From: Ignavibacteriales bacterium | Lineage (GTDB): Bacteria; Bacteroidota; Ignavibacteria; UBA10030; UBA8401 | DNA length: 64,000 nt | Reading direction: 5' to 3' | Assembly (NCBI GenBank): GCA_026390635.1 | Contig: JAPLFO010000148.1 | Location: 60,080 to 124,079, forward strand | Part shown: in pieces, positions 7,823 to 49,884 of the stretch | Layout of the letters: each line of letters begins with the position of its first letter | How positions within the stretch are numbered: position 1 is the stretch's first letter | Made by a program: the position numbers and the translations under genes | The notes under the pieces: model-generated | Databases searched by the model: none | What the model saw: the letters and a program-made list of their open reading frames with translations, nothing else | What the model was told of the DNA's origin: nothing

Positions 7823-10507
7823 CTATCTCAGCAGCAGCATCTTCTTCATGAGAGAAGAGCCGTTCCATTCGAGCTTCGCCACGTAGATCCCGCTGGCAAA
7901 GCGCGACGCATCGAACGTCACATGATAAAATTCTCCGGCAGTTGCCGGACCGTCGAACAGCGTCGCCACTTTCTGGCCAAGCATATTGTAAACGACGACT
8001 GTTGCGCGAGTGTTTTCCGAGAGAACAAATTCCAGCGCAGTGGCGGGATTAAAGGGATTTGGATAATTTTGCGCAAGCATTGCGATCGATGGCATGACCG
8101 CCCTCTGCGAAACCACTCCCACCTGAATTTCGGGGAAATACGCTCGACGGACCAGCGTTGTATCCACAATAAACGGATTGGGCTTGCCGCTTTCATACTT
8201 CGCAATCAGAAACGTACGCGCATGTTCGAGCGAATCCACCGGATCCAGATAGTGCCAGCGGTAGATGGTGCTCAATTGGTTTCTGAAGAAGACTGGATCG
8301 GCAGCATCTGCTTGGCTCTTATACATCGTGTAGAAATAGCAGAGCGCGCGAGCGATGTTTCCTTTGTGATCGGCGCGGGGCTCAAAGATAACGCCGGACT
8401 TGACTTTGCTGTATTCTTCGATCAGCAGCGTAGGTTTGAATTGAGTTTTTGTTGTCAACCGGTACCAGTAGCTCACTTCATTGTCAGGAATATCGCCATA
8501 GGGATAGTTGCCGCGGTCACTGTTCACACCGATTTGCGTCGGGAAGAGATGATGCATATCGCTTTGCGCCTGACCACTGGCCCCCTTGGATTGCGGAAAT
8601 GTATGCTCCACGTTCAAACCGCTTCCGCCCGCTCCTTCATAACCGGTATACACGCAGCGCACATTGCTGTTGGGAAGTCTGTACACTTCGGCGAAGAGCG
8701 CCGGCGGCGGATATCCCTGCGTGGTGGAAGGTTTGTACGACGTGACAATGTTCGCCAGTAGTGTTGTTCCGCTCTGCCCTGCGAAGAGCACCTGCTGCGG
8801 CACCTGATACGCTGTCGCAGTAGTAAATACCGCGGTTGGGGAGTATTCGCTTGATCCCGCCGAGTTTGCCGCGCGGACATGCCAGTAATATTTTGTCTGC
8901 ATCTGTAACGGTGCAAGAACCATGCTGTTGCCGGTAATAGTAGAATCGTCCAGTACGGTCAATACAAAGTCTGATTGTAGCGATACTTGCACACGATACG
9001 ACGCCGCTCCCTGTACCGCAGACCAGTTTAGACGCGGAGTGACAGGTATGGAGGCCGATCCGTCCGCCGGAGAAATTGTTTGCGGCACTTCGGGAATGAT
9101 CGGCCCGTCCGACGGAATCGCCGTCGCGATCGGACTTCTCCAGAGCGCGGACCAGGACGAGCCGTTCCGCACGAAAACGCGAAATGCATACGAAGCAGCA
9201 TTCGTCAACCCCATAACCGTTACCGTGTCAGCGGTTCCCTTGTAGACAACATAGGTACCTGCACCAACCGACGTTCCCTGTCCAAAGAACGCGTTCGCTG
9301 TATAGGATGATCCGTTGCCGCTTGGAATTGCGCTGACATCTTTTCCTGATGCACCAACGATGACAACTTCATCCCAAAAGACCCCCTGCGGTCCCGCATA
9401 GTTCTGCCATTGTAGTTTGACGTGTCGGTTTCCAGTCAGCGTTACCAGATGTGCGACCCCATGCACTTCCGCAGTATCCATAATCACAGGTGTACCGGCA
9501 GAAAAACCTGTGTCTTTGTATGCGAACGATTTGAAATAATATTTCTTGTGTTCCAGCAAGCCGGTCACCGTCACGGCATTGTCGGTGCCGTTATAGACAA
9601 GCTTTGAAGCACCAAAAGCTGCTGCTTTCGGATAATCTGACGATGCTCCGAGTAATGTGTGCCCGGGCACCGTTGGTACAAAATCTACCGGCAGATCTTC
9701 GCGCACAAATACCAAGACCGAATCGTCTCCATAGGCAGGAGCCTCCCAGCCGATATTCATCGCGCTCTCGCTGACGTAATTGACGGAGAACAATCTCGGG
9801 TTCGGGACAAAAATGCCGTTTCCCGCCGACACGACGGAAATGTCGTCAAAACCGACGCTCGCGCTGGTTCCGGATTCCACTCCGCGCCAGACGGCCCAGC
9901 GCAGCTGCACGACCGGCTGGTTTCCTGCATCCGGCGGAAGAATCAGATCCGTGAAGACATCTTTCGCTCCCTGAAGGCGGTCGCTGTTCCCGTGGAAATA
10001 CAAAGATGCCGGAACCGTGGCCCAGACGCCGGTTGTGCCGACACGATACTGAAGGACTACACCGACCGATCGGGTAATATCAGAAATCGCAGTAATCGAA
10101 TAGCCGACTTTGACATTGATGATATCCGTTGTATTGATGGCGAGCGCCAATTGATCGACGCCGTTCGTTGCGTTGCCGCTTGTTTGGATATAGACTTGAG
10201 CATTCCCATTCGCCACATATCCATATGCTCCGCCGGCCTGTTGGATTATTGCCGCCGCCGTTATCGTTGCATTCCCTGTCGGTGCACTTGTTTCGGCGAG
10301 CACCTGCGTATTCACCACAGTACCGCTAATGCCGTTCCAGATCACAAAACCCGGCGGCATCGAGGTGAATCCCGAAGTTCCAAAGTCCTGAGAAACCGGA
10401 AGAGTTTGCGGCGTTGGATTTGTCTGTCCAACAAGGATCGAAGTAGAGAGCATGGCAGCGACACTTGCTGCCACAAAACAACGGAGGACGCGAACTAGTG
10501 ATCTCAT
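7823..10507 (-). CDS. Secreted endonuclease I family nuclease with FN3-like domains and a C-terminal T9SS sorting domain
   Basis: The block VEHTFPQSKG...DMHHLFPTQIGVNSDRGNYPYG matches the endonuclease I (EndA/Vvn) catalytic motifs EHxxP / DLHHLxP / NSxRGN. An FN3-like block follows (PRLNWSAVQGAASYRVQVS...YYWHVRA). The C-terminus NYPNPFNPATALEF...VYNMLGQKV...GIYVAKL...KKMLLLR is a type A T9SS domain. The start is set at MRSLVRVL..., which reads as a signal peptide. Confidence 0.75.
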   Translation of the reverse strand: MRSLVRVLRCFVAASVAAMLSTSILVGQTNPTPQTLPVSQDFGTSGFTSMPPGFVIWNGISGTVVNTQVLAETSAPTGNATITAAAIIQQAGGAYGYVANGNAQVYIQTSGNATNGVDQLALAINTTDIINVKVGYSITAISDITRSVGVVLQYRVGTTGVWATVPASLYFHGNSDRLQGAKDVFTDLILPPDAGNQPVVQLRWAVWRGVESGTSASVGFDDISVVSAGNGIFVPNPRLFSVNYVSESAMNIGWEAPAYGDDSVLVFVREDLPVDFVPTVPGHTLLGASSDYPKAAAFGASKLVYNGTDNAVTVTGLLEHKKYYFKSFAYKDTGFSAGTPVIMDTAEVHGVAHLVTLTGNRHVKLQWQNYAGPQGVFWDEVVIVGASGKDVSAIPSGNGSSYTANAFFGQGTSVGAGTYVVYKGTADTVTVMGLTNAASYAFRVFVRNGSSWSALWRSPIATAIPSDGPIIPEVPQTISPADGSASIPVTPRLNWSAVQGAASYRVQVSLQSDFVLTVLDDSTITGNSMVLAPLQMQTKYYWHVRAANSAGSSEYSPTAVFTTATAYQVPQQVLFAGQSGTTLLANIVTSYKPSTTQGYPPPALFAEVYRLPNSNVRCVYTGYEGAGGSGLNVEHTFPQSKGASGQAQSDMHHLFPTQIGVNSDRGNYPYGDIPDNEVSYWYRLTTKTQFKPTLLIEEYSKVKSGVIFEPRADHKGNIARALCYFYTMYKSQADAADPVFFRNQLSTIYRWHYLDPVDSLEHARTFLIAKYESGKPNPFIVDTTLVRRAYFPEIQVGVVSQRAVMPSIAMLAQNYPNPFNPATALEFVLSENTRATVVVYNMLGQKVATLFDGPATAGEFYHVTFDASRFASGIYVAKLEWNGSSLMKKMLLLR

Positions 10508-10728
10508 GAAGCAAAACTCCAAATTTGAATAGAGACGTTGAGTTAAATGTACTACCCAATTCCCTTCTTTCATAAACAAATCTTGGCAAAATTACGCTCC
10601 GCGGTAGAGAAACTGGACCACCTGCCCTTTCAGCAATTATGTTTTCCTGATGTTTTCGCAACTTACCGGGCTAAATCGGCGTAGTACAAAGGATTTCACG
10701 TACACTCACAATCAACAGCGCCGATTCC

Positions 10729-11826
10729 ATGACGACACAAAAAAAGATTACAATTTCTGCAGCCGGCGTCGTTATCGCCGGTATTGCTGCATTTCTCATT
10801 TTCGGAAACAGTAAATCATCGGGCAATAGCGAACTCCCCAGAGTGAAAGTGACCAAAGGAACCATTGTCGACAAAGCGCTGGCCGTGGGAACTATCGAGC
10901 CGGAAAATGAGATCTCCATCAAATCGAAAGTCTCGGGCGTGGTCAGCAAGATTTTTACCGACGTCGGCGTGTATGTGAAAATGGGGCAACCGCTTCTTGA
11001 AGTGCGGCCGGATCCGACACCGCTGGAACTGGCGGATGCAAAACGCCAGGTGCAGCTGAGTCAGGTGGATCTGGACAACCTGAAAAAGGAGCAGGTGCGC
11101 TCGCAAAGTCTCTTTAAGAACAAAATGATTTCAAACAAGGAGTATGAAGATTTTCAAAAACGGTTTGAAGAATCAAAACTCCGCGTGATGATCGCGACGG
11201 AAAAGCTTGCATTGATGGAGAGTGGAAAAGTGAAAATCGGAGAAACCGAAATTGAGTCCATCGTCAAAGCACCGATTTCCGGATTTGTCTTGAACCGAAC
11301 CGTCGAAGTCGGCGATCCGGTGACACCGCTGACCTCGTATCAGGAAGGGACCGTGCTGATGAAGATGGCCAATATGGAACGGCTCATCTTCAAGGGAACA
11401 GTGGACGAAATCGACGTCGGGAAGCTGAAAGAAGGAATGGCTGTTGAAATCAAAGTCGGCGCCCTGCCTGGCGATACGGTACGAGGAGTCCTTCGAAAAA
11501 TCTGGCTCAAGGCCGAGAAGAAAGACAATGCGGCGGTCTTCCCGATTGAAATACTGATACCGAGTTCCAGCAACAGAGTTCTCCGTGCCGGCTATTCCGC
11601 AAATGCCAACATCATTATTCAGAAGAAAAACAGCGTGCTCATCATCCCGGAACGCGTTATCACATTCAGCAACGATTCCGCATTTGTCAGCGTGGCTCTT
11701 GGCGCGAAGAAGGAAGAGAGACGCTGCATTAGAACCGGCCTCAGTGACGCCAGCAATATCGAGGTGACATCGGGTTTGAAAGAAGGAGACGATGTAGTAG
11801 AAAAACCGGTCAAGAAAATCGATTGA
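10729..11826 (+). CDS. HlyD/MacA-type periplasmic adaptor subunit
   Basis: N-terminal TM anchor, coiled-coil and beta-barrel regions. It immediately precedes two FtsX-type permease genes. Confidence 0.8.
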   Translation: MTTQKKITISAAGVVIAGIAAFLIFGNSKSSGNSELPRVKVTKGTIVDKALAVGTIEPENEISIKSKVSGVVSKIFTDVGVYVKMGQPLLEVRPDPTPLELADAKRQVQLSQVDLDNLKKEQVRSQSLFKNKMISNKEYEDFQKRFEESKLRVMIATEKLALMESGKVKIGETEIESIVKAPISGFVLNRTVEVGDPVTPLTSYQEGTVLMKMANMERLIFKGTVDEIDVGKLKEGMAVEIKVGALPGDTVRGVLRKIWLKAEKKDNAAVFPIEILIPSSSNRVLRAGYSANANIIIQKKNSVLIIPERVITFSNDSAFVSVALGAKKEERRCIRTGLSDASNIEVTSGLKEGDDVVEKPVKKID

Positions 11827-15436: not shown

Positions 15437-16702
15437 TTATTTTGCCACCAGCATTTTGCGTGCAGCCGAAAAAGATCCTGCAGTAAGCCGATAGAAATAG
15501 ACACCGCTTCGTAAGGTGCTCGCGTTGAATCGCTCTTCGTAATGTCCCGAAGCCCTCTTCCTGTCCACGAGCACCGCAACCTGACGACCAAGGCAATCAT
15601 ACACATGAAGCGACACATGTGTCGTTGTCGGTATGTCGAATGCAATCGTCGTTGAAGGATTGAAAGGATTCGGGTAGCACTGGTGCAATTCATATTCTGA
15701 GACGGTCACATTCCTCTTTTGTGTGATGGAAGTAGGCTGGCCGGCATATTTCAGAACATAACCGTCCGCCGCAGCAACCCATCCATAGTGGACACCGTTC
15801 ACCAGAACAAAACTCAGATGCCACAAACCTCTGGCAGCCTGCCGGTATTGCTCGATCCATGTCGCTCCCGCATCAGTGCTTCTATACACGGCTGAATCTC
15901 CTGTCGCCCAGCAATCACCGTTTTCGACGCCACAGACATTAAAGGTGCCGCTCATGAGTCTATTGTTCCAGGTCCATTGTGTTCCACCGTCGGATGTGCG
16001 ATAGAATCCGCTTGAAAACGCAACAACTCCTCGTAACGAATCAATGAACCAAATGCCATAACTGTCATCAAATGGGGCAGCTTTTGCAGTCCACGTCGTA
16101 CCTCGATCTGTTGACTGATAAACCCGGTGCCCGCCGCATCCGATAGTTCCAAACCATACAAATCTGCCATGGGCAACCGCTATTGAATTAATATGCCCTA
16201 CTTCACACTTGGGCATCTTAGGCGCCCCCTGAAGGAGGTTCCAGGTTAATCCGCCGTCGCTTGTCCGGATTATATGCCAGACTGAATCCAGCGGGTCGCC
16301 GACAGCAATGCCGTTGAGACGGTCGAACATCCTTATGCCATCGATAAACGTGCTGTCAGTGTACACGATCGTCCATGACCGGCCTTGGTCGGAGGAACGA
16401 TGGATAAACCTCATTTTGTTCTTTTCCGACGCTGCCAAAACTACGCCGTCAGTAGTCACTTCTATTGTCGGAAATGATCCGGAGATGCTTTTGTACCAGG
16501 ATGAGCCGCCATCGGATGTATTGAAAACGCCCGCGTTGCCGCATACCCAGGCAATAAGCGGGCTCACCGTCTTGACGGACCACGTGTATTGATTTTCTCC
16601 GATGTATTGTCTGTTCCAAACAGTGGACTGCGAGAGAAGTGTGTGGACCCCGGGCGCAGCAATGAAGAGAAAAAATGCAATCATTCTTCTGGGAGAGGAC
16701 AT
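15437..16702 (-). CDS. BNR/Asp-box repeat beta-propeller protein with a C-terminal T9SS sorting domain
   Basis: Six SxDxGxTW-type repeats (TSDGGSSWY, SSDQGRSWT, TSDGGLTWN, STDRGTTWT, TSDGGTQWT, STDAGATWI). The C-terminus CYPNPFNPSTTIAFDIP...VYDCLGRQV...GVYFYRLTAG...KMLVAK is a T9SS domain. Confidence 0.7.
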   Translation of the reverse strand: MSSPRRMIAFFLFIAAPGVHTLLSQSTVWNRQYIGENQYTWSVKTVSPLIAWVCGNAGVFNTSDGGSSWYKSISGSFPTIEVTTDGVVLAASEKNKMRFIHRSSDQGRSWTIVYTDSTFIDGIRMFDRLNGIAVGDPLDSVWHIIRTSDGGLTWNLLQGAPKMPKCEVGHINSIAVAHGRFVWFGTIGCGGHRVYQSTDRGTTWTAKAAPFDDSYGIWFIDSLRGVVAFSSGFYRTSDGGTQWTWNNRLMSGTFNVCGVENGDCWATGDSAVYRSTDAGATWIEQYRQAARGLWHLSFVLVNGVHYGWVAAADGYVLKYAGQPTSITQKRNVTVSEYELHQCYPNPFNPSTTIAFDIPTTTHVSLHVYDCLGRQVAVLVDRKRASGHYEERFNASTLRSGVYFYRLTAGSFSAARKMLVAK

Positions 16703-16823: not shown

Positions 16824-19115
16824 CTATTTCACAACAAGCATTTTCTTCGCTGCTGAATACGCTCCGGCAGTCATACGGTAGAAATAGACGCCGCTTCCCA
16901 AGCGTCCGGCATCGAATCGTTCTTCATAATGTCCCGGAGACTTTTTTCCATCTGCAACGGTTGCAACGTGCCTGCCAAGACAATCATAGACGACAAGAGA
17001 AACATACGCTACTGTTGGAACGTCGTAAGTAATTGTCGTTGCCGGATTAAAGGGATTGGGATAGTTCTGATTCAGGCGAAACTCTTCTGGATAGCCGGGT
17101 GATGACACTCTCACTGCGGTAAATGCTGCAATTGCATTTTGCATGACGCTCCCAGCATCATAGATGTGCGCATAGTTCGGATCCTTGTCTGGTGACGCGT
17201 ATGTCACGTTCGACGTATCGCTTCTGAAATTGCAGGAAAGATAGTCAAACGCGAGAAATATCGTATGCCAGGAATTGTCCGGAGCGTCTTTGCGAACACC
17301 CACTGTGCGCGTGCCGTCTGTGAAAAGTATTTTTGCGTCAGCCGTGGGCTTCAATTCATCCATCCAGTTCAATGCCGGAGGAATTTCATAATTGGGATGG
17401 TACCAGAACGACCCTCCATTTTTGTTTGCATATTGCCGAATGAAACCAAATAACTGGTCCGTCGAATCCTGCGGGGTGATCTTCCACGGCCACGTTACGT
17501 TGATACCCGTGAAGGCATAGTCTTGCGGTCCAATTAATTGTAGTCCGAAATATTTATTATGCGGATCATCGGCTCCAAAACCCTCGCCGTAGCCGCCAAT
17601 GAATCCGTGATCCTGGTCGGCGAGAAGATAGGTTTTTTGTCTCTGGGCAGTCCCGGACGAAAGCCATGCTGCGGCCTTTCCGGTCAGGTCTGCATATCCG
17701 CCGTCCCCTGTCGCTTCAAACACGATATCATAATTGTTGAGAAGATCGGAAACTTCCGCCGCTCCTTCTTTTTTTACGTCCCAAACGTCATAATATTGTT
17801 TCGCATCGATGCCGGCTCTTTTCATATACTTGGCGGCCAGAGAACTGACGGATGCGCCCGTCGGAAGAGAGCGACCGTTCCACAGACAAAGATACTTCGA
17901 ACCCGGCCGGAATATTTGATAGGAATACGTCGGAGCCGTTTGTGTGAGATTATGCATATCGGTCGCTACAACGAAATAGTATACCGTATCACCCGGATTT
18001 GCTGCCGGCAATGTGCCGGCATAGTTCGGCGGTGTCCCCGACATTGCAGACTTGACATACGCGCCGCCATTTATCTTTGCATACAGCTCAACAGATTTGA
18101 GCCCGCCGGGACCATCTGATCGGATAGTCGCGGTGACTGTCCGCGGCGACGTCTTCAATGTCGTTGAGAGCCGCTGCAGCGAAATCTTTGGAGGCGGCGT
18201 CTCCCAGTATTCAACGATAGCGTACCACTTCCATTCATGGGCGCGGATTTGCCAGCCGTAGTTGCTGGTTGGCGTTCCTTCATAGAATTTGATGGAATGG
18301 TACGGATAGCCGAGCGAGGAAAACGCAGCAAGTGTCAATGGTGTGTCGAGGGGAGCGGCCGGGCTGCTTGAGACTTCCGACATATTTTGTACTGTAAATC
18401 CAAATGGAATTTGTTTTCGGAAAGGCATCGAATCGGGAACAGCTTTGTGCCATTGCCCTGCAACAAGATCGACATCAATCCCGTGGTTGCCGGAAATCAG
18501 GAATTCTTTTCCCAGAGGATCGAATGTCACTTCTGAAGCGGCCTTCCCTTTTACAAATGCCGTGTCGGTTGCTTCGTCCCAAAATGGAGTCTTGAGGCCG
18601 TCACCGTCGGTCGAGCATTTGTAGAAGCCCATGTTGCCGTTCGTATCTGTCCCGGAAGTTGAAAACGCCGTTGCGGGAAGGGAGACAATGCGCGGGTCCA
18701 TGTTCCATGCCCGAACCCGCGCGCGATGATTCAGTCCGACCGTATAGCCGGCCGCCGTTTGAAACCAGATCTCCCGCACAATGCCATCAGATTCGGGCAG
18801 ATACCACTGCAGCGCGACATCCTTGTGCGTGAATGAGAATGCCGTATTTGTGGCCGCACCCGATTTATCATACACGAAGAGAGTATCAATTGGCCAGGAA
18901 TGCGGTGACAGATTGAAGAGCCCGCTTTCCCGCCCGATGATCACATCGGCCGGTGATTCCATCCCACGGAGAGGAAAGACTTCCTGATTGCCGTGCGAAT
19001 CAATGCGCACAACGGAGCGACCGGAATTCTGCGCTAGCGCAAAAGATGCCAACGACAGGAAAAAGACACATGCCGCAGTCATAATGGAATGTTTTGATCG
19101 AAAGATCGGTTTCAT
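16824..19115 (-). CDS. Large secreted protein of unknown function with a C-terminal T9SS sorting domain
   Basis: The C-terminus NYPNPFNPATTITYDVP...VYDCLGRHV...GVYFYRMTAG...KMLVVK is near-identical in type to the neighbouring T9SS domains. The start is trimmed to MKPIFRSKHSIMTAACVFFLSLASFALA, a signal peptide whose ATG is at 19115. Confidence 0.6.
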   Translation of the reverse strand: MKPIFRSKHSIMTAACVFFLSLASFALAQNSGRSVVRIDSHGNQEVFPLRGMESPADVIIGRESGLFNLSPHSWPIDTLFVYDKSGAATNTAFSFTHKDVALQWYLPESDGIVREIWFQTAAGYTVGLNHRARVRAWNMDPRIVSLPATAFSTSGTDTNGNMGFYKCSTDGDGLKTPFWDEATDTAFVKGKAASEVTFDPLGKEFLISGNHGIDVDLVAGQWHKAVPDSMPFRKQIPFGFTVQNMSEVSSSPAAPLDTPLTLAAFSSLGYPYHSIKFYEGTPTSNYGWQIRAHEWKWYAIVEYWETPPPKISLQRLSTTLKTSPRTVTATIRSDGPGGLKSVELYAKINGGAYVKSAMSGTPPNYAGTLPAANPGDTVYYFVVATDMHNLTQTAPTYSYQIFRPGSKYLCLWNGRSLPTGASVSSLAAKYMKRAGIDAKQYYDVWDVKKEGAAEVSDLLNNYDIVFEATGDGGYADLTGKAAAWLSSGTAQRQKTYLLADQDHGFIGGYGEGFGADDPHNKYFGLQLIGPQDYAFTGINVTWPWKITPQDSTDQLFGFIRQYANKNGGSFWYHPNYEIPPALNWMDELKPTADAKILFTDGTRTVGVRKDAPDNSWHTIFLAFDYLSCNFRSDTSNVTYASPDKDPNYAHIYDAGSVMQNAIAAFTAVRVSSPGYPEEFRLNQNYPNPFNPATTITYDVPTVAYVSLVVYDCLGRHVATVADGKKSPGHYEERFDAGRLGSGVYFYRMTAGAYSAAKKMLVVK

Positions 19116-19350
19116 CGTACACATTGTACTCATCGTTGAGACCAGACAGACATTTCCGGGTATTGCCCGGCTGGAAGCGGCAGTCGGGTCAGCCCTGTGC
19201 CGTCCTTCCAATGCATATGACTACGGTAGCGTATTCATTGGTAAGAATCAACCGGTAACTGCTGTCAATCACAAAAGGGAGAGGTGACGACACCTCGGCC
19301 GACATGGCGAGCAACGCCGAGCCACGCTCGGTGACCGTCGAGCAAATACA

Positions 19351-20064
19351 TCACTTCTCCAATTGCGCCAATCCTGCAGACGCCACGTAGACATGTGCCG
19401 CTCCGGCTTGTTTGAGGACGGCCGCGGCTTCCTGCAACGTGGAACCGGTGGTGATGATATCATCTACCAGCAGGAATGTGCGGTCTCGAATTGCAGACGC
19501 ATCCCCCGATATCGTAAACGCTGCTTCAATATTATGTTTTCGCTGATCTGCCGTCAGATGTGTTTGCGTCACGGTGTTCTTCACTCTTCGGAGAAGAGAT
19601 GGCATGATCGCGGTGTGGAGCAATTCGTGAATCCCGCGACATATATGTTCACTTTGATTATAGCCCCGTTCGCGCAGCCGCACAGTGTGCAGGGGCACGG
19701 GAACGATTCCATCAATAGTGAGATCATGCGGAAGAACAGCAGCGAGCCTTCGTCCGAATTCCACACCGCACCAGGTAACACCTTCGTATTTAAGCGCATG
19801 GGCAAGCTTCTGAAAAACACCGCCGTGCTCAAAATAGCAGTAGGACCAGAAGCCGTCAATGGCGCCGCCAAGGGCAAAGCGCCCGGAGAGTATTTTGTGC
19901 GTATCATCATTTTCAGAAACGAGGGAAAGCGAACCCCAGCAGAGAGGACAAACGCGCACCTCACCGTCGCGGAGACGCTCATTGCAGGAAAAACAAAGAG
20001 GCGGAAATAGAAAATCCCGCAGCGGCTGCAGCCGCCGCCCCACCCAGGAAACGACATCCCCCAT
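19351..20064 (-). CDS. comFC: ComF family protein (ComFC-type phosphoribosyltransferase with an N-terminal zinc ribbon)
   Basis: LCFSCNERL...CPLCWGSL is the double CxxC; the PRTase motif is FLLVDDIITTGSTLQEAAAVL. The start is set at MGDVV so that it overlaps the stop of the upstream ATPase by 3 nt. Confidence 0.7.
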   Translation of the reverse strand: MGDVVSWVGRRLQPLRDFLFPPLCFSCNERLRDGEVRVCPLCWGSLSLVSENDDTHKILSGRFALGGAIDGFWSYCYFEHGGVFQKLAHALKYEGVTWCGVEFGRRLAAVLPHDLTIDGIVPVPLHTVRLRERGYNQSEHICRGIHELLHTAIMPSLLRRVKNTVTQTHLTADQRKHNIEAAFTISGDASAIRDRTFLLVDDIITTGSTLQEAAAVLKQAGAAHVYVASAGLAQLEK

Positions 20065-20065
20065 A

Positions 20066-21757
20066 TCACCCCAAGACGCGGAAGTATTCCTCAACAGAAA
20101 TGATGCCGCTGACGAGTTTTTTCGCGGCATCGAAACGAATCGATTCGAATCCTTTGGAGCGCGCAACTTCCTTCAATTTCATCAGAGACGCCTGCTGGAA
20201 AATCAAATCGCGCATTTCATCGTCGACGATCAGGACCTCATGCAGCGCTGTACGTCCCAGATAGCCGTCGCCGCCGCACTTGGTACATCCTTTGCCGCGA
20301 TACAGAATCATAGAACCGACAAGTTGTTCCAATCCCGCCGTTGCCAGAATTCGATGGGATGGCGTGTATTCTTCTTTGCAGTAGCGGCACACTTTGCGTG
20401 CGAGTTGCTGATAGACGATGCCGCTCAATGTCGGTGCCAGCCAGCCAGGCGAAATTCCCAGGCTTGTCAATCGGGGAATAGACGACAGCGCATCGCTCGA
20501 GAGCATCGTGCTAATGACCAGATTGCCGGTCAATGCCGCCTCGGCAGCAGCGACACCGGTTTCCGCATCGCGTATTTCGCCGAGCATAATAACATCCGGA
20601 TTTTGCCGCATAATGGCGCGAATTGCGTTGGCAAAATCGAGTTTCGAATCCACGTCCACCTGTACCTGACCGGCAAATTCGAGCCGGTATTCCACCGGAT
20701 TTTCCACGGTCATCACAACTTTTTGTGATGCGCGGAGTTCGTTGATGCCGGCATAGAGGGTGGATGTTTTCCCGCTGCCGGAGGGTCCCGCGACGAGCAA
20801 CAATCCGCGCGGCCGACGGAGAAGGTACTGCACCTTCGACAGATTTTCCGCCGATAGTCCAAGATCGTGAATGTTCAACAGGCGCGAGCTTTTGTTCAGA
20901 ATTCTGATCGCAGCACGCTCACCGTCGAGCGTCGGCACCAGGCTGACCCGAAAATCAAATGTGCGTTTCGCAAACGTTGCAGAGAATCGACCATCCTGCG
21001 GTTTCTTCTTTTCAAATGAATTGATACCCGCGCGCGCCTTGATGATGTTCAGCAGATTCTCATACAATTCTTTCGGCAACGCCACCAGATGCTCGATGAC
21101 ACCGTCGTTGTTCAGGCGCACACGCAGCGAGACGTCGGTGGGTTCGATGTGAATATCCGTCGCGTTGTTCTTGATACCGCGCAGCAGGATTTCTTCAAAA
21201 AGCGCTTCTGCACCGGGAACCTTGCCTGCCCGCTGCAGTTCCGCAAAACGACCCGGTCCCGCTTTCTGACTATCGAGCGCTTCGAAATTGATTTTCGACG
21301 GAAGAAGCTTAATCTCGTCGAAACCGGACGGCTCGCTGTGGGCGATCGAATTATAGGCGGACAATGTGATCGCGACCGGCACAATGAACATTTTCACGTC
21401 CTGACGCAACATGTCAACGAGTTGCTTTGCGGGCGGATTGATGAAGCCGACCGTGAGTTCGACGCCCGAGGAAAGGATCGGAACGATCCGGTATTTCTGC
21501 AGCACAACATCCGGAAACAGCTTCGGCGGGGCCGTGATAAGTTCCGGGGACAGCACTACAAACGGAATTTGAAATTCGCGGGAGAGAACGTCGGCAACGA
21601 CGTCGTCGCTGACGTCCAGCTGTTCGACCAGGATTTCGGCTGCGCCCTCCGTCTGCGATTCTTTCAGCAGCCGGTTGAACTTTTCGTAGCGCACTTTGTC
21701 CAGGTATCCCTGGGTCAGGAGCGCTTTGCCGAGCCGTATGTCTTCTTCCTGCAGCAT
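20066..21757 (-). CDS. GspE/PilB-family secretion ATPase, paralog 1 (T2SSE_N domain, AAA+ core, tetracysteine)
   Basis: 563 aa. Walker A VAGPSGSGKTSTLYA; C-terminal CRYCKEEY...CTKCGGDGYLGR zinc motif; N-terminal GSPII_E_N-like domain. Confidence 0.85.
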   Translation of the reverse strand: MLQEEDIRLGKALLTQGYLDKVRYEKFNRLLKESQTEGAAEILVEQLDVSDDVVADVLSREFQIPFVVLSPELITAPPKLFPDVVLQKYRIVPILSSGVELTVGFINPPAKQLVDMLRQDVKMFIVPVAITLSAYNSIAHSEPSGFDEIKLLPSKINFEALDSQKAGPGRFAELQRAGKVPGAEALFEEILLRGIKNNATDIHIEPTDVSLRVRLNNDGVIEHLVALPKELYENLLNIIKARAGINSFEKKKPQDGRFSATFAKRTFDFRVSLVPTLDGERAAIRILNKSSRLLNIHDLGLSAENLSKVQYLLRRPRGLLLVAGPSGSGKTSTLYAGINELRASQKVVMTVENPVEYRLEFAGQVQVDVDSKLDFANAIRAIMRQNPDVIMLGEIRDAETGVAAAEAALTGNLVISTMLSSDALSSIPRLTSLGISPGWLAPTLSGIVYQQLARKVCRYCKEEYTPSHRILATAGLEQLVGSMILYRGKGCTKCGGDGYLGRTALHEVLIVDDEMRDLIFQQASLMKLKEVARSKGFESIRFDAAKKLVSGIISVEEYFRVLG

Positions 21758-21802
21758 AGTTTCGTTCTGTGATTGATCCGGACTGCGTTCGTTCGCCGGG
21801 AG

Positions 21803-22120
21803 CTATTGAAACAACTTGTCAACATCCAATTGCGAAATACTCACCCGCTTGCTTGCTTTAATCGTGTGGTGCTGCAGATCCAGAAGCTGCAGCAACTCCT
21901 GTTCAGAAAAGTGTGCGGCGCTTTCGACAAACTCCTCCACAGGACGGCGCTTCACCAGGGAACCGATACGCAGCAACGACTGTCCGCAACCGCCGCAATA
22001 CATGTCTGTTGTCGCGTTGATAAACGTACACGAATGCCTCACCGCGTGCAGTTTCGTGCTGCACGATGTGCATACCATCTCGCTTCGCCCATTATCCCTT
22101 TTGCAGTGGTGACAAATCAT
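21803..22120 (-). CDS. Small double-zinc-ribbon protein (105 aa), paralog 1
   Basis: MICHHCKRD...CTSC...CGGCGQ gives four CxxC pairs, with a helical C-terminal tail ...SISQLDVDKLFQ. The start overlaps the stop of the receiver gene (ATGA). The order is conserved with the paralog at 24255-24572. Confidence 0.55.
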   Translation of the reverse strand: MICHHCKRDNGRSEMVCTSCSTKLHAVRHSCTFINATTDMYCGGCGQSLLRIGSLVKRRPVEEFVESAAHFSEQELLQLLDLQHHTIKASKRVSISQLDVDKLFQ

Positions 22121-22512
22121 ACCTTATTCTCTTGAAGGTCGAGCACGCGGCGAACCACTTCCATCAATTTTTGTGACGAATACGGTTTGATCAGATAGTA
22201 ACTGGCACCGCGCAATTTTGCCTCCTGCACAACTTCCGGCGTCGAAATCGCCGAAATCATGATGACTTTTGCCGCCGGATCAAAGCTCCGGATCTGGGCC
22301 AGCACTTCCATACCGGGGAGTTTCGGGAGCATATTGTCCAGAAAAACCACCGTCGGCCTATGCTCTTTGAACATTGCCACGCCGGCTTCTCCGTCGGTGG
22401 CCTGTTGTACTCTGGTCACTCCCTCTTTTTTTAGGAGCATTGACAGCAATGCCCGGACGTGCTCGGAATCGTCAACAATCAGGGCGGAAATTTTTTCGCA
22501 GTTTGGCAGCAT
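22117..22512 (-). CDS. Single-domain response regulator (CheY-like receiver), paralog 1
   Basis: ALIVDDSEHVR...VFLDNMLPKLPGMEV...KVIMISA... The start is set at MLPNCEK (ATG 22512) because a strong gaggagagagg SD precedes it; the ORF-track start at 22539 has no SD. Confidence 0.75.
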   Translation of the reverse strand: MLPNCEKISALIVDDSEHVRALLSMLLKKEGVTRVQQATDGEAGVAMFKEHRPTVVFLDNMLPKLPGMEVLAQIRSFDPAAKVIMISAISTPEVVQEAKLRGASYYLIKPYSSQKLMEVVRRVLDLQENKV

Positions 22513-22549: not shown

Positions 22550-24253
22550 CTATATTCCCGTGCGTGTCACGCGCTGTACTTCTTCCAGTGTTGTCAATCC
22601 GGCCAACACTTTTTTCAGGCCATCGAAGCGCAGGTCGCGGAATCCGTCCTTCTCCGCCTGTTGCAGAATCTTAATCGTCGTGGCATTCTGATAGATAAGG
22701 TCCTGAATCGCTTCGTTGACACTCAGCACTTCATGAATAGCGATTCTCCCCTTGAATCCGCGGAAGCCGCATTTAGTACAGCCGACACCCCGGAAGAAAG
22801 TCACACGTTTATGAAGGCCGATGAGTCCGTTCACATACAACATTTCTTCATTGGGCTCATATTCTTCCTTGCACTCGTCGCAAATACGACGCACAAGACG
22901 CTGACCGACGGCTCCGATCAGCCCTGGAGCGAGCCAATACGGCGGAATGCCCATGTTGATTAGTCTGGGAATGGCGCCCACCGCATCGTTGGTGTGCAGT
23001 GTGCTCAAAACGAGATGCCCCGTCAGAGCCGCTTCCGTTGCGATGGTGCCGGTTTCGCCGTCGCGAATCTCGCCGACCAGTATGATGTTCGGATCCTGCC
23101 GGAGGATGGCACGCAGCGCGCTTGCGAACGTGAGATCCTTCTCCGGATCGACCTGTACCTGGTTGACCGTATCCACCTGATACTCAACCGGATTTTCAAT
23201 CGTCACAATATTCCGTTCGACTGATTTTACTCTATTGAGCGCTGCGTAGAGTGTTGTGCTCTTGCCGCTTCCGGTCGGCCCGGTTACAACCAGCAAGCCG
23301 TTTGGCTGTTTCAAAAGATGCAGGAGTACGGCAAGATTTTGTGACGAGAATCCCATCTCTTCCAGCTTCACTGCTATCGAGCTCTTGCTGAGAATACGGA
23401 GTACCGTTTTTTCGCCGTTGACCGTCGGAATCACACTGACACGCATATCGAACGAACGCGTCTCGTATGTCAGCGTGATGCGCCCATCCTGCGGCTTCCT
23501 TTTTTCGAACATATCCATCGACGCTTTGGTCTTGATGACCGCGATCATTCCTTCCCCGAATTTCTTCGGGAAAGAGGCAATGCGCTGCAGCACGCCGTCC
23601 GTACGGAAGCGCAGCTTCACTTCGTGTTCGAATTGCTCCAGATGGATATCGCTCGCGCCGCACTTGACTGCGCGCAAGAATATCTCGTCCACCAAGCGAA
23701 CCAACGGCGGAAATTGTCCGAACTCCTCCATTCGTGCAAGTTCCACTTCTCCGGTCTTGATAACGTCGAATTTTTCCAGATCGATCGTACTGGCAATTCT
23801 TTGGATATCATCGAAACCGCCGCGCTGGATCGAAAGCGTTTCCTGAAAATCGGTGAGTGTCGAGACGACCGGTACAATCCGCGCCTTCGTCATCTTGGTC
23901 AGCTCTTCGATCATCGTCCGGTATGGCGGATCGACAATCGCCACCGTCAGTTCGTTGCCAAGGAGAAACATGGGGATGACACGGTGCTGTTTCAGAAACG
24001 CATCGGAGATAATTTCTTTCGGCGCGGAGGCAGTTTCCGAATAGAGCCGCATGAAGGGAAGATTGAATGCATCGCTGAACGCATCGGCAAGGTCAAATTC
24101 GGAGAAGAATTTGAAATCCACCAAGGCTTGTGCGAACCCGTTCGCCATGCCGTGATTGTTGACCAAGTCCTCAAATTGCCGCCATTGCGCATCGGTCAGC
24201 AGTTTTTGGGCAATGCAATATTCCCGGAAGTGAAGATCTTCTTTGGAAAACAT
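22550..24253 (-). CDS. GspE/PilB-family secretion ATPase, paralog 2
   Basis: 567 aa. Walker A VTGPTGSGKSTTLYAALN; C-terminal CDECKEEY...CTKCGFRGFKGR; N-terminal T2SSE_N-like domain. Confidence 0.85.
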   Translation of the reverse strand: MFSKEDLHFREYCIAQKLLTDAQWRQFEDLVNNHGMANGFAQALVDFKFFSEFDLADAFSDAFNLPFMRLYSETASAPKEIISDAFLKQHRVIPMFLLGNELTVAIVDPPYRTMIEELTKMTKARIVPVVSTLTDFQETLSIQRGGFDDIQRIASTIDLEKFDVIKTGEVELARMEEFGQFPPLVRLVDEIFLRAVKCGASDIHLEQFEHEVKLRFRTDGVLQRIASFPKKFGEGMIAVIKTKASMDMFEKRKPQDGRITLTYETRSFDMRVSVIPTVNGEKTVLRILSKSSIAVKLEEMGFSSQNLAVLLHLLKQPNGLLVVTGPTGSGKSTTLYAALNRVKSVERNIVTIENPVEYQVDTVNQVQVDPEKDLTFASALRAILRQDPNIILVGEIRDGETGTIATEAALTGHLVLSTLHTNDAVGAIPRLINMGIPPYWLAPGLIGAVGQRLVRRICDECKEEYEPNEEMLYVNGLIGLHKRVTFFRGVGCTKCGFRGFKGRIAIHEVLSVNEAIQDLIYQNATTIKILQQAEKDGFRDLRFDGLKKVLAGLTTLEEVQRVTRTGI

Positions 24254-24254
24254 A

Positions 24255-24572
24255 TCAACCGAATAGTTCGTCGATAGAGATCTGTGACAGATTCTTGACT
24301 TTCTTTCGTGATGTAAGACGCAGGCGTTCTTCCATCAGCTCACTCAGAATCGCTTCACTAAACTGGGTGATGTGCAGAATACGCATCTGCTCCCCACGGG
24401 CGATGATGGCAGACAACCCCGTGGGAATCGGCGTGCCGCATTTTCCGCAATAGCGATAGTGGAGCGGATTGCCGTGTTGACACACCGTACAACGCCATCC
24501 GAGTTCCGATTCACATTCCACACATCGGAATGGCGGATCAATATAAGTGTGATTGCATTGTTGGCAGGTCAT
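24255..24572 (-). CDS. Small double-zinc-ribbon protein (105 aa), paralog 2
   Basis: MTCQQCNH...CVECE...CTVCQ...CGKCG gives four CxxC pairs, with a C-terminal tail ...LSQISIDELFG. Same length and position as the 21803-22120 gene. Confidence 0.55.
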   Translation of the reverse strand: MTCQQCNHTYIDPPFRCVECESELGWRCTVCQHGNPLHYRYCGKCGTPIPTGLSAIIARGEQMRILHITQFSEAILSELMEERLRLTSRKKVKNLSQISIDELFG

Positions 24573-25010: not shown

Positions 25011-27017
25011 TCAGCGCTCGGTCAGGCGCTTGATCTCGTCGCGAAGTTGCGCAGCACGTTCAAATTCAAGATCTTTGGAGGCTTTTAGCATTTCGGACTT
25101 AAGTTCTTCAAGGAGATCAGCCTTCTGCTCTGCGGTCAGATACCGGGTGATTGAATCCGCAAGCGCAGGAAGCTGTTCCCGCTCTTTCCGCGCATCCCGC
25201 GACGATTTCACGTCGGCAACCGCGGTCGAGGCCATCACTTCTTCATACGATTTATAGATGGTTTTGGGAGTTATATTATGCTCTCTATTATAAGCAATCT
25301 GCTTCTCGCGCCGTCGGGCCGTCTCCTCCATCATCCGGCGCATCGAATCCGTGACCTTATCCGCATACATGATGACCGTGCCATTGACGTTGCGCGCAGT
25401 GCGTCCCGCCGTTTGAATCAGCGACCGCTCCGATCTCAGAAATCCCTCCTTGTCTGCATCCAGAATCGCGACCAGAGACACTTCGGGAAGGTCGAGCCCC
25501 TCACGGAGCAGATTGACGCCGATTAAGACATCACAATGACCGAGACGCAGTTCACGGAGGATTTCGACCCGCTCCAGTGCATCAATGTCTGAGTGTATGT
25601 AGCGCACGTTGATGTTGATATCCAGCAGGTAGTTGGTCAGATCTTCGGCCATTCGCTTGGTCAATGTTGTCACCAGTGTCCGTTCCTTCAATGCGGTGCA
25701 TTTCCGGATTTCGGCAATGAGATCGTCGATTTGGTTTTTCACCGGACGCACTATGACCTGTGGATCGACGAGTCCCGTCGGACGAATGACCTGTTCGACA
25801 AAAATGCCCTTGCACTTTTCCAGTTCATATGACCCCGGCGTCGCGCTGACAAAAATAACCTGCGGTACCATCGACTCCCATTCGTCAAAACGAAGTGGCC
25901 TGTTGTCCAGCGCTGACGGAAGGCGAAATCCAAAATTGACGAGGTTCTCCTTCCGCGAGCGGTCACCAAAATACATGCCGCCGATCTGCGGAACGGTGAC
26001 GTGCGATTCGTCGATAACGAGAAGAAAATCCTTGGGGAAATAGTCGAAGAGACATGACGGACGCGATCCGGGCGGACGGCCCGCGAGATGACGCGAATAG
26101 TTTTCGATGCCGTTGCAGTATCCGACTTCGCGCAGCATTTCAATGTCGAAACGTGTCCGCTGTTCCAGGCGCTGCGCTTCGACCAGCTTATCAAGATGAC
26201 GGAGTTCGCGGAGCCGATCCTTCATCTCCGCTTCGATAGAGATAATTCCCCGCTCGACCGACTGCTTCGTCGTGACAAATTGTTTCGCTGGATAGATCAC
26301 ATCGTAATCAACTTCTGCAATGATACTGCCATCCATTCGATTGATGGATGAGATACGTTCAATTTCATCGCCGAAAAATTCGATGCGCACCGCCTGATCC
26401 ATCTCGTACGCCGGAATCACTTCCACGACATCGCCGCGAACGCGGAATGTTCCGCGCGTGAATTCATAATCATTCCGTGTATAGAGGATATCCAGCAATC
26501 GTTTCAGCAGTTTGTTGCGCTCGATGTGGTCGCCTTTCTTAACGACGACCATCTGTTGAATCCAGTCGTCCGGCGCGCCGATACCGTAGATACTGCTGAC
26601 AGAAGCGATGACGATGACGTTTCTCTCTCCACTCAACAGCGCGCTCGTCGCCCGCAGCCGCAGGCGATCGATCTCATCATTCACCGACGAGTCTTTTTGG
26701 ATGTACGTGTCGGTGGAGGGAACATATGCTTCCGGCTGGTAGTAATCGTAATAGCTTATGAAGAACTCAACATGGTCCTTCGGGAAGAATCCTTTGAATT
26801 CAGCATAGAGTTGTGCCGCAAGCGTTTTGTTATGCGACATGATCAACACCGGCCGGTCGAATTGCGCGATGACGTTCGACACTGTGAACGTCTTGCCGCT
26901 CCCCGTCACACCCAGCAGCGTCTGAAATCTATCCCCACGCAGTACGCCTTCGGTCAATTGCTTGATGGCTTCGGGCTGATCGCCTTGAGGAGTATAGTCG
27001 GATGAGAGAGTATACAT
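25011..27017 (-). CDS. uvrB: Excinuclease ABC subunit B
   Basis: 668 aa: ...LLGVTGSGKTFTVSNVIAQ...YDYYQPEAY..., helicase motifs and a C-terminal UvrB/UvrC interaction helix. Confidence 0.9.
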   Translation of the reverse strand: MYTLSSDYTPQGDQPEAIKQLTEGVLRGDRFQTLLGVTGSGKTFTVSNVIAQFDRPVLIMSHNKTLAAQLYAEFKGFFPKDHVEFFISYYDYYQPEAYVPSTDTYIQKDSSVNDEIDRLRLRATSALLSGERNVIVIASVSSIYGIGAPDDWIQQMVVVKKGDHIERNKLLKRLLDILYTRNDYEFTRGTFRVRGDVVEVIPAYEMDQAVRIEFFGDEIERISSINRMDGSIIAEVDYDVIYPAKQFVTTKQSVERGIISIEAEMKDRLRELRHLDKLVEAQRLEQRTRFDIEMLREVGYCNGIENYSRHLAGRPPGSRPSCLFDYFPKDFLLVIDESHVTVPQIGGMYFGDRSRKENLVNFGFRLPSALDNRPLRFDEWESMVPQVIFVSATPGSYELEKCKGIFVEQVIRPTGLVDPQVIVRPVKNQIDDLIAEIRKCTALKERTLVTTLTKRMAEDLTNYLLDININVRYIHSDIDALERVEILRELRLGHCDVLIGVNLLREGLDLPEVSLVAILDADKEGFLRSERSLIQTAGRTARNVNGTVIMYADKVTDSMRRMMEETARRREKQIAYNREHNITPKTIYKSYEEVMASTAVADVKSSRDARKEREQLPALADSITRYLTAEQKADLLEELKSEMLKASKDLEFERAAQLRDEIKRLTER

Positions 27018-40131: not shown

Positions 40132-41379
40132 CTACACCCACCCCCGCAACTTGCATGCTTCCGCAACGCGCGCAACACCAACCACCATTGCGGCCAGTCG
40201 CGGATGGACGCGTTTCTGAACCATCGCCTGCTGTACGGAGTGGTACGCCTTCGTCAGTTTCTGATCGAGACGTTTGTGCACCAGATCTTCGTCCCAGAAG
40301 TACGAGTAACTGTCCTGCACCATTTCAAAATACGACACCGTGACGCCTCCCGCGCTTGCAAGAATATCGGGGATGACGTGCACTCCTTTGCGGAAAAGGA
40401 TCAGATCAGCCTCGGGCGTCGTGGGGCCATTGGCGAGCTCACAGACGATTTTCGCCTTGATTTTCTCGGCATTCAACTCCGAAATCGCATTTTCAAGCGC
40501 CGCCGGGTATAACACGTCCACGTCGAGCTCCAGAATTTCTTCGTGCGAAATCTGCTGCGCGCCCGGAAAACTGCGCACCGTTCCGGTTGTCAGTTTGTGT
40601 GTCACGAGATCTTTCGGATTGAATCCGTCCGGATTGTAAATGGCACCGCGCGAATCGCTGACGGCCACCAGTTTTCCCCCACCGAGAATTTCTTCATGCA
40701 GCAGCGCGGCGCGCTGTCCGGCGTTGCCGAATCCCTGAATGGCATACCGCCCGTGCGGATTCACATCGAGAATCTTACACGCCTCGCGCACGGTCGTCAC
40801 ACCGCCGCGGGCGGTCGCATCGCGCCGTCCTTCCGTACCGCCGATCTGCAACGGCTTGTCCGTAAACACACCGGGTTGATGCCGATGGACGATGGTTTCA
40901 TATTCGTCCATCATCCATGCCATTGTCTGTGGATTGGTATAGACGTCCGGCGCAGGAATGTCTTTTTCCGGGCCGATGTATTCTGCTACGGCGCGGATGT
41001 AGGCACGCGAGAGATTTTCCAGCTCGCGTTCAGAAAGTTTTTTGGGATCGCAGACAACGCCCCCCTTGCCGCCGCCAAGAGGAAGATCCACCACCGCAGT
41101 CTTCCACGTCATCCAGCTCGCAAGAGCGCGGATGATGTCCACGGTCTCGTCCGGATGAAAGCGGATACCGCCTTTGGCCGGGCCGCGCGCGAAATTGTAC
41201 TGGATCCGGTAGGCGTGAAAAATCTTCACCGATCCGTCGTCCATTTTTACCGGAAGCGTGCAGGAAAATTCCCGCTGCGGATAGCTCAGTAACTCGACCG
41301 TTGCGCGATCAAGGTTCAGCAGCTTTGCCGCTTCCGCAACCTGCTTTTGAGCGACATGAAAAGAATTATACGATTCCAT
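40132..41379 (-). CDS. Glu/Leu/Phe/Val dehydrogenase family, 415-aa glutamate dehydrogenase type
   Basis: ...[43 protein letters not shown]...; the NAD(P)-binding GFGNAG motif. Confidence 0.85.
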
Positions 41380-41423
41380 AGTCTTTGCCTTTTTGATCGC
41401 TGATTACTCAGATTTATGGATTG

Positions 41424-41588
41424 AGACGTCTGAAAAACCATCGCGGATTGTCATTCTGAGTCGCGCAGCGACGGAGAATCCATCGTTGTGATCTGAAAAC
41501 AACAAATGGATTCTTCGCGGAGCTTGTGCTGAGCGGAGCCGAAGCGCTCAGAATGACCGGCATCCAGGAGTTTTTCAGAAGTCTCGGA
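41424..41588 (-). repeat. MITE-like palindromic element, family A, copy 2 (inverted relative to copy 1)
   Basis: Its reverse complement matches 31520-31683 with 3-4 mismatches over about 165 bp. Confidence 0.8.
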
Positions 41589-41687
41589 TTACACAGCGTA
41601 TTGGTATTTATGTCTTCATCTTCGTAATCTGCGATCCATTTATTTGGCTGCAGTGCTGTTCCATTAAGTTGAATTATGAATTCTCTG

Positions 41688-41783
41688 CCCGCTTCGCCGA
41701 GCTCAGCGAGGCGAGTGCTCTCTTCTTTTTCTCTGTGCGTCACCCCGAGCGAGTGAAGCGAGTCGAGGGGCTCTGTGGCATAT
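41688..41783 (-). repeat. Intergenic repeat, family C, copy 1 (about 95 bp)
   Basis: Its reverse complement is about 95% identical to 46596-46688 (gccacagagcccctcgactcgcttc.ctcg.tcggggtgacgcacagagaaa...agagagcactcgcctcgctgagctcggcgaagcgg). Confidence 0.75.
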
Positions 41784-41805
41784 CTCTTACTTTCCATTTT
41801 ACGAT

Positions 41806-45003: not shown

Positions 45004-45140
45004 AGTACAAAAGACCTGACAGGTGTTTATAGCAAGCGTCCGACACCTCCTTGATTCGCAATGGCTGCTGATGCTATCAATATTTCAAAATAGAAGCCAG
45101 CGTTCTACGGAAGAGATGTCGGACACTTTGCGACACGCTA

Positions 45141-46547
<1,407 letters not shown>

Positions 46548-46595
46548 TCAGAGCAAATCTGACCGCTCTGATTAAATCATGAAAGAAAGACTTTG

Positions 46596-49810: not shown

Positions 49811-49884
49811 TGCCGTCTGGAATCATAGAATGTGCGGGGATGAGTTATCCCGCTTGTCCCGCACATTCTATAACATTCCTTGCG

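Follow-up and report, generated by a model that had tools for sequence, protein, structure and literature searches.

What does a very small protein do when its gene lies, twice over in the same genome, between the gene for a CheY-like receiver and the gene for a secretion-type ATPase? The question is raised by a stretch of 64,000 nucleotides (nt) on contig JAPLFO010000148.1 of an Ignavibacteriales bacterium (hereafter the window), in which two open reading frames (ORFs) of 105 amino acids (aa), here called paralog A and paralog B, occupy this position (Table 1). To our knowledge, the routes by which CheY-like regulators reach type IV pilus motors are understood in only a few models, namely Pil-Chp in Pseudomonas, PATAN-CheY in cyanobacteria and Frz in Myxococcus, each of which relies on large dedicated domains. 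We propose, with moderate confidence, that each 105-aa protein serves as a small adaptor between a CheY-like response regulator and a PilB/GspE-like extension ATPase of the type IV pilus or type II secretion type.

Both ORFs are real genes under strong purifying selection. Compared with the orthologous locus L014 (L numbers denote the loci compared), the proportions of nonsynonymous and synonymous differences (pN/pS) are 0.12/0.77 for paralog A and 0.07/0.69 for paralog B; third codon positions account for 54 of 83 and 49 of 65 differences, respectively. The GC content of third codon positions (0.63 for A and 0.54 for B) lies inside the range of the flanking genes (0.47-0.64). Two ORFs opposite paralog A, at 21773-22135 (+; 120 aa) and 21816-22112 (+; 98 aa), are shadow ORFs, since the substitutions follow the minus-strand frame. 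The NCBI record of paralog A (NTV54_10630, 91 aa) starts at Met15 and skips window positions 22079-22120 (-); the start at 22120, which gives 105 aa and an ATGA overlap with the receiver gene, is the better one, because a protein starting at Met15 lacks the first CxxC knuckle, which every homolog has.

The two proteins align without a gap over 104 residues (25% identity, E = 4e-9), and word-index searches recovered one ortholog group for each of them, with all members 104-107 aa long and located at the same position in other genomes. A profile search with HMMER over 1.84 billion representatives at 50% identity gave 62 matches at E <= 1e-10; among the best 150 representatives, 92 are full-length members with both ribbon and tail (100-147 aa, median 111), so that the family comprises at least 92 clusters at 50% identity. 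Members were found in Ignavibacteriales, Bacteroidota, Thermodesulfovibrio metagenome-assembled genomes (MAGs) and many unassigned metagenome contigs, and their source names are only “hypothetical” or “zinc ribbon domain-containing”. NCBIfam holds no model for the family, and targeted full-text literature searching gave no published description of it. A preliminary description of the locus had taken the two ORFs for dedicated partner proteins rather than spurious ORFs, and this view is upheld by a large unnamed family that is syntenic with a receiver and a PilB/GspE-like ATPase across distant lineages. The same description had proposed a new small family with a conserved LSQxSxDxLF tail: the family is indeed unnamed and the tail conserved, but the N-terminal half is a known Pfam domain and the tail motif, as argued below, is not new.

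The N-terminal half corresponds to the double zinc ribbon DZR (PF12773), a 45-position profile with a gathering cutoff of 27.3 bits. Residues 3-46 of paralog B match profile positions 1-45 at 27.8 bits, and paralog A falls just under the cutoff (25.4 bits) with the same full-length coverage. In alignments of 65 and 80 family sequences, ligands C3, C6, C17, C20, C31, C42 and C45 never vary; Q97 and F104 of the tail region are likewise invariant across 65-80 members. The eighth ligand position is C28 in paralog B and most members and H29 in the paralog A group; the four CxxC pairs first reported for each protein are therefore present in B (C3/C6, C17/C20, C28/C31, C42/C45), whereas A has seven cysteines, arranged as three CxxC pairs and an “HSC” knuckle (H29-x-C31) that is conserved in its ortholog group. 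The domain is a predicted two-zinc ribbon of four knuckles with eight ligands.

AlphaFold2 (AF2) models have the same layout in both paralogs: a confident ribbon at residues 1-49 (predicted local distance difference test, pLDDT, 87-92; about 90 in A and about 87 in B), a low-confidence linker at about residues 57-65, predicted to be disordered in A, a 17-residue helix at residues 73-89, and a short terminal helix at residues 97-103 in A and 97-104 in B. Foldseek comparison of the AF2 model with the PDB returned nothing under E = 0.08, and only generic RING, NZF and RanBP2-type zinc fingers. The longer matches of the profile and word-index searches either have DZR in an unrelated architecture (adenylate cyclases and multi-ribbon proteins, among the weaker profile matches) or end in low-complexity extensions. 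The N-terminal 46 residues match DZR end to end; the adaptor family differs from generic DZR proteins, which come in many architectures, in being defined by a helix and a tail that lie outside the DZR model. The preliminary description had suggested that the C-terminal helix be compared with ATPase-binding and anti-sigma-like modules; an anti-sigma-like module found no support in Pfam or NCBIfam.

Paralog A ends in ...SISQLDVDKLFQ (...DVDKLFQ) and paralog B in ...LSQISIDELFG (...IDELFG); the C-terminal 15-mers of the tails are ...KRVSISQLDVDKLFQ and ...KVKNLSQISIDELFG. The logo of 109 distinct tails reads [VLI][ST]Q[DE][DE][ILV]DxLF, mostly 1-5 residues before the C-terminus, and aligns position by position with residues 6-15 of E. 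coli FliM (LSQAEIDALL) and with the C-terminus of E. coli CheZ (ASQDQVDDLL, within the end ...ASQDQVDDLLDSLGF). In a position matrix built from the tails, on which family members score 17.2-31.1 bits, the FliM motif scores 17.7 bits, within the family range; this score was reached by 0 of 3 million random positions and by 0 of 32,295 window-ORF positions, and the FliM motif is the top match among 62,373 positions of all long ORFs compared. The CheZ peptide scores 9.8 bits, the best of that fragment, a value reached by 74 of 3 million random positions.

The tail consensus was also back-translated into a degenerate DNA pattern and scanned over GTDB genomes, and 108 ORFs stand among the matches listed. 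In 73 of these the motif lies at the very C-terminal end of a protein with the CheZ catalytic signature QD[ILV]T[GAS]Q, and in 13 it is at the C-terminus of other proteins; it is internal in 17 (about 17 chance matches are estimated for the full collection scan), four ORFs are cut by the end of the locus and not classifiable, and one is a member of the adaptor family itself. Pfam CheZ scored above its cutoff for five of the eight retrieved proteins tested (Thalassospira, Bradyrhizobium, Ignavibacteriaceae, Melioribacter and Kryptoniota). The CheZ-like proteins of the last three end in ...SQDEIDKLFS (...TSQDEIDKLFS in Ignavibacteria), and the alphaproteobacterial LLNGPQ...SQDDIDKLF parallels LLNGPQ...SQDQVDDLL of E. 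coli CheZ. Because the consensus pattern retrieves CheZ C-termini, including those of Ignavibacteria themselves, we read the adaptor tail as a predicted CheZ-type C-terminal CheY-docking peptide, similar to the N-terminus of FliM, and not as a new motif. Phosphorylated CheY binds the EIDAL(L) motif of FliM and FliY, by which it is docked on the motility motor (PMC6946799, PMC9126983), and CheZ binds the face of CheY that FliM also uses (PMC3774744, which cites Guhaniyogi et al. 2008). The putative identity of the tail as a CheY-docking peptide therefore points to the receiver as its partner.

Two further occurrences of such motifs were seen. LSQVDLDNLK, at 11056-11085 (+) in a HlyD-family membrane-fusion protein of the window, scores 16.3 bits on the tail matrix; it lies internally in a stretch of coiled coil, and we treat it as a chance match, which illustrates how limited inference from a motif alone is. 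Proteins of about 180-190 aa from Kordiimonas lacus (L058) and a Rhodospirillaceae MAG (L065) share the N-terminal sequence ...LATDYLNHFNE(I/V)VML(L/I)EM(V/L)PDMP... and end in CheZ-type peptides (TQEDIDKLFD and TQDDIDKLFD); the L058 protein has no Pfam match, and the two may belong to a further CheY-docking family that is as yet uncharacterised.

The adaptors appear to contain the motif a second time, in a weaker form. The start of the central helix carries [YLF][ST]xx[ED][IL]xEL[LM], which we read as a degenerate internal repeat of the tail motif. In 68 of 122 members (about 6 expected by chance), the internal segment that best fits the tail matrix scores above the 95th percentile of shuffled sequences; in 66 of these 68 it lies 23-31 residues upstream of the tail. 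E. coli FliM scores 16.6 bits on a matrix of the internal motif, equal to the family median and reached by 3 of 3 million random positions. The internal copies of the window paralogs (FSEQELLQLL in A, FSEAILSELM in B) are themselves weak and are assigned by position. Tandem docking peptides, in two or three copies, were also observed in CheZ-like proteins of several phyla (L078, L079, L088, L094, L106), for example ...NDDIDALFAG...LQDDIDKLFSQD...SQEEIDKLFG in the Cloacimonadales protein of L079.

The flanking genes that the preliminary description named on either side of each ORF are borne out by Pfam Response_reg matches and by T2SSE and PilB-like matches. For the start-stop overlap with the receiver, paralog A has it (ATGA), and paralog B does not: its start lies 2 nt from the receiver stop (TGAcaATG). 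The stop of adaptor B is separated by 1 nt from the start of ATPase B; the corresponding spacing for A is 45 nt. The whole receiver-adaptor-ATPase module has been duplicated in this genome, and its three parts have diverged together (41% identity between the ATPases, 42% between the receivers and 25% between the adaptors). In a synteny set of 13 non-redundant loci, the downstream gene is identifiable in 12, and in all 12 it is a T2SSE (PilB/GspE-like) ATPase; a single-domain receiver lies directly upstream of the adaptor in 10 of the 13, and in L010 the receiver is placed downstream of the ATPase. Doubled modules recur in L001, L002, L005, L014 and L140, and histidine kinase genes adjoin the module in L007 and L015. 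The receiver, adaptor and ATPase genes are real, conserved and translationally coupled in modules.

The receivers of the window and those of L001, L002, L005, L007 and L010, aligned to E. coli CheY, keep the equivalents of D12, D13, D57, S/T87, Y106 and K109, together with hydrophobic residues at CheY positions 95, 103 and 108, and the best NCBIfam matches of both window receivers include CheY. The peptides of CheZ and FliM bind the alpha4-beta5-alpha5 face of phospho-CheY, whose peptide-contacting residues we take to be I95, A103, Y106, V108, K119 and K122. At positions 95, 103, 106 and 108, the window receivers have V, A, Y and I/L, which are conservative; position 119 is not conserved. The ATPases score 537.6 bits (PilB) and 513.4 bits (GspE) in the case of B, and 397.5 and 396.0 bits in the case of A; these values are below the NCBIfam equivalog cutoffs (675.65 bits for TIGR02538 PilB and 630.25 bits for TIGR02533 GspE), and we therefore place both in the T2SSE superfamily without a named subfamily. 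Walker A and tetracysteine motifs, read from the sequence, are intact in both. The MshEN domain is clear in ATPase B (46.1 bits), and ATPase A scores 21.8 bits against a cutoff of 23.1 bits. Within the N-terminal regions of the ATPases (21650-21757 for A and 24140-24253 for B, minus strand), the start of ATPase A, ...IRLGKALLTQGYL, resembles the first half of the MshEN binding motif for cyclic di-GMP (c-di-GMP).

We propose that the parts work together as follows. A kinase, encoded next to the module in some lineages, would phosphorylate the single-domain receiver; the phosphorylated neighbouring receiver, or the chemotaxis CheY of the cell, would bind the adaptor tail and perhaps the internal motif copy as well; the zinc ribbon would anchor the adaptor on the ATPase encoded directly downstream; and phosphorylation of the receiver would thereby switch or localise the activity of the pilus motor. 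The two diverged modules, with tails ending in ...DVDKLFQ and ...IDELFG, might then provide two separately addressed ATPases within one operon. Binding of the phosphorylated receiver to the tail is strongly suggested by motif identity together with gene coupling. We infer the contact between zinc ribbon and ATPase from gene order alone, which is the first of several points that weigh against the proposal. The final residue of the motif is Phe in 107 of 109 tails and Leu in FliM and CheZ of E. coli, and a motif of ten residues that starts with an S-x-x-E helix cap could have arisen by convergence. When a tail profile was run on the sequences of the PDB, FliM and CheZ were missing from the matches, which were all at chance level with E >= 0.13 (lactate dehydrogenase, Hu antigens); as this 21-column profile has too little power, the position matrix with explicit nulls was used instead. 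In both window receivers the equivalent of CheY K119, which we take to pair with FliM D12, is Val or Ile, and position 122 is Arg. A single-domain receiver is not adjacent in L018 and L009, the latter (3-377, 728-970) having a GGDEF cyclase upstream of the adaptor and a downstream fragment with a weak DUF4388 (PATAN) match. Among the HMMER and word-index matches there is no fusion of a receiver with an adaptor or of an adaptor with an ATPase, and no pilus structural genes were found in the window.

In a rival reading, the tail would bind the phosphorylated receiver without any action of the protein on the ATPase. The adaptor would then be a CheZ-like tether, buffer or sink without phosphatase activity, which holds CheY-like proteins at a site defined by the ribbon or hands them to a phosphatase such as CheX, and co-transcription with the ATPase gene would reflect shared regulation only. 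We regard this as unlikely, yet as the strongest of the competitors. It accords with the fact that the tail is common to CheZ, whose peptide serves as a tether only; with the CheX/CheC-type CheY-P phosphatase gene found after the ATPase in L018 (7338-7745); with the tandem peptide copies that many CheZ-like proteins have in common with the adaptor family; and with the reliance of the ribbon-ATPase contact on gene order. However, the ATPase is the most constant neighbour of the adaptor, more so than the receiver, adaptor B and ATPase B are separated by a single nucleotide, and the three genes were copied and diverged together when the module was duplicated.

A different assignment of the contacts, which we consider distinctly less probable still, is that both tail and central helix bind to the ATPase, its N-terminal domain being one example of a site, that the likeness to CheY-binding peptides is convergent, and that the receiver acts on the ATPase directly. 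The EIDAL motif is also reported to bind a partner other than CheY, namely FlhG, and the ATPase is the invariant neighbour. Moreover, CheY-like regulators can reach PilB1 of Synechocystis without an adaptor: PixG and PixE contact it directly via their own PATAN domain (bioRxiv 10.1101/2021.06.11.447907; PMC11181946). As a system in which a CheY-type phospho-signal arrives at a PilB motor, PATAN-CheY is the closest functional analogue of the one proposed here, from which it differs in that the window receivers consist of one bare domain each, the docking motif being on a separate adaptor. What speaks for the tail as a receiver-binding element is that its consensus equals that of CheZ C-termini position by position, across phyla and within the same lineage; that not only the motif but also its extreme C-terminal position is common to CheZ; and that the receivers retain the hydrophobic pocket residues.

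The genes around the module in this genome suggest another reading, namely a ComF-related zinc-ribbon factor for nucleic-acid binding or DNA uptake, or a tail in which the C-terminal Qxx[ILV]xxLF would be a PIP-box-like motif for the sliding clamp. In the Ignavibacteria group the cluster is followed by comF, which L002, L003 and L014 have in the same place; uvrB is found upstream both in the window and in L014; the motif is similar to Qxx(h)xx(a)(a); and JGI calls some members “predicted amidophosphoribosyltransferase”, a name explained by the similar ribbon at the N-terminus of ComF. However, uvrB and comF adjoin the module in the Ignavibacteria group only, and both are absent from its neighbourhood in eight loci (L001, L005, L007, L010, L015, L017, L018 and L140); the adaptors have no phosphoribosyltransferase domain in Pfam; the bacterial clamp motif QL[SD]LF does not fit; Foldseek found no nucleic-acid-binding relative (best E = 0.08); and the genomic home of the motif is CheZ. 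With neighbours that are not conserved and a motif that belongs with CheZ, the clamp-binding reading is rejected, and we judge this whole explanation very improbable. That the ORFs are spurious or non-coding, as their shortness and the 91-aa NCBI annotation of paralog A from another start might suggest, is practically untenable in view of the pN/pS values, the homologs of conserved length at the same position in many genomes and the invariant cysteine ligands.

The proposed receiver-to-ATPase adaptor can be set against known systems on both of its sides. Like CheZ (PF04344), it carries the consensus ...[ST]Q[DE][DE]IDKLF at the extreme C-terminus after a flexible linker, with tandem copies in some members of both families. 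Unlike CheZ, its body is a double zinc ribbon, without the four-helix-bundle phosphatase body or the QDxTGQ catalytic motif, and its gene is found with that of a PilB-like ATPase and not with che genes. Pfam CheZ does not match the adaptors at E <= 1, and QD[ILV]T[GAS]Q is absent from both sequences; a role as a CheZ phosphatase is ruled out by the missing D143/Q147 catalytic motif, the lack of a Pfam match and the predicted fold of a ribbon and two helices. The EIDAL(L) motif of FliM and FliY fits both the tail and the internal motif, with the scores given above, but the adaptor motif is C-terminal instead of N-terminal and ends in Phe instead of Leu, and the presumed target is an ATPase of the secretion superfamily and not the flagellar C ring. 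The adaptors have no Pfam matches to FliM, CheC or SpoA, and their identification as FliM is rejected, since the motif alone is shared, without CheC-like or SpoA domains.

On the side of the motor, the adaptor resembles the PilZ-FimX-PilB system in being a small protein that is encoded with, and presumed to bind, an extension ATPase, which it links to a signalling protein with a receiver domain. It differs in having neither a PilZ fold (no Pfam match in the adaptors at E <= 1) nor c-di-GMP logic; a phosphorylated CheY-like protein, recognised by a docking peptide, would supply the input. The PilB cofactors listed in a 2024 review (PMC11656802) are c-di-GMP/MshEN, PilZ-FimX, CpiA and phage peptides; a zinc-ribbon adaptor is not among them. 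We infer all of the interactions proposed here, and would describe the adaptor as one in which an established way of docking meets a new carrier and a new target.

Table 1. Features of the duplicated module and adjoining genes, in the direction of transcription
Feature	Position in window	Strand	Evidence or remark
uvrB	25011-27017	-	first listed gene of the cluster, upstream of receiver B
Receiver B, single-domain CheY-like response regulator, 119 aa	24575..24934	-	Pfam Response_reg E = 8e-27; best NCBIfam match CheY_Halo E = 1e-23
DZR-tail adaptor, paralog B, 105 aa	24255..24572	-	ATG start; ORF, alignment, Pfam, pN/pS, AF2 model
Paralog B, predicted double zinc ribbon, residues 1-49, four CxxC pairs	24426..24572	-	Pfam DZR PF12773
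Paralog B, putative internal EIDAL-like motif FSEAILSELM, residues 71-80, start of central helix	24333..24362	-	homologous by position to family motif; weak alone
Paralog B, putative C-terminal CheY-docking-type peptide LSQISIDELF, residues 95-104	24261..24290	-	logo, matrix score, genome pattern scan
PilB/GspE-like ATPase B, 567 aa (MshEN + T2SSE)	22550..24253	-	Pfam T2SSE E = 3e-126, MshEN E = 5e-12
Receiver A, single-domain CheY-like response regulator, 140 aa	22117..22539	-	Pfam Response_reg E = 2e-26
DZR-tail adaptor, paralog A, 105 aa (ORF under study)	21803..22120	-	ATG start; ORF, alignment, Pfam, pN/pS, AF2 model
Paralog A, predicted double zinc ribbon, residues 1-49, three CxxC pairs + H29-x-C31	21974..22120	-	Pfam DZR just under cutoff; ligand positions conserved in alignment
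Paralog A, putative internal EIDAL-like motif FSEQELLQLL, residues 71-80	21881..21910	-	family motif by position
Paralog A, putative C-terminal CheY-docking-type peptide ISQLDVDKLF, residues 95-104	21809..21838	-	logo, matrix score, genome pattern scan
PilB/GspE-like ATPase A, 563 aa	20066..21757	-	Pfam T2SSE E = 6e-98; MshEN 21.8 bits, below cutoff
ComF-like phosphoribosyltransferase with own zinc ribbon, last cluster gene	19351..20166 (about)	-	Pfam Pribosyltran + DZR_2

All genes of the cluster lie on the minus strand. The ComF-like gene has NCBIfam matches to ComF/GntX under the cutoff, and its listed TTG start overlaps ATPase A, so that the true start is probably later. Elsewhere in the window, three proteins carry type IX secretion sorting tails (7823-10579, 15437-16702 and 16824-19211, all minus strand), and one of them combines Endonuclease_1 and fn3 domains; a secreted nuclease alongside comF and PilB-like ATPases hints at a theme of DNA uptake. 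A separate region, 40132-51225 (-), holds an unusual repeated pairing, in which three glutamate/leucine-dehydrogenase paralogs (40132-41379, 45141-46502 and 49885-51225) are interleaved with two large receiver + PPDK_N kinase-like proteins (42643-45003 and 46796-49810).

Beyond the window, the distribution of the family leads us to put forward, more tentatively than the role of the two proteins themselves, a widespread and undescribed output branch of CheY-type signalling, in which an adaptor of about 110 aa with a CheZ/FliM docking peptide joins phosphorylated single-domain receivers to PilB/GspE-like ATPases. The occurrence of a CheZ-type peptide outside CheZ matters for the annotation of CheY interaction partners. 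If the proposal is true, a peptide and a zinc ribbon would constitute a simple and portable wiring rule, which would account for the many “orphan” receiver-PilB gene pairs in uncultured phyla; and should the chemotaxis CheY bind the tails as well, flagellar chemotaxis would, by way of the adaptor, be coupled directly to motors of pili or of DNA uptake.

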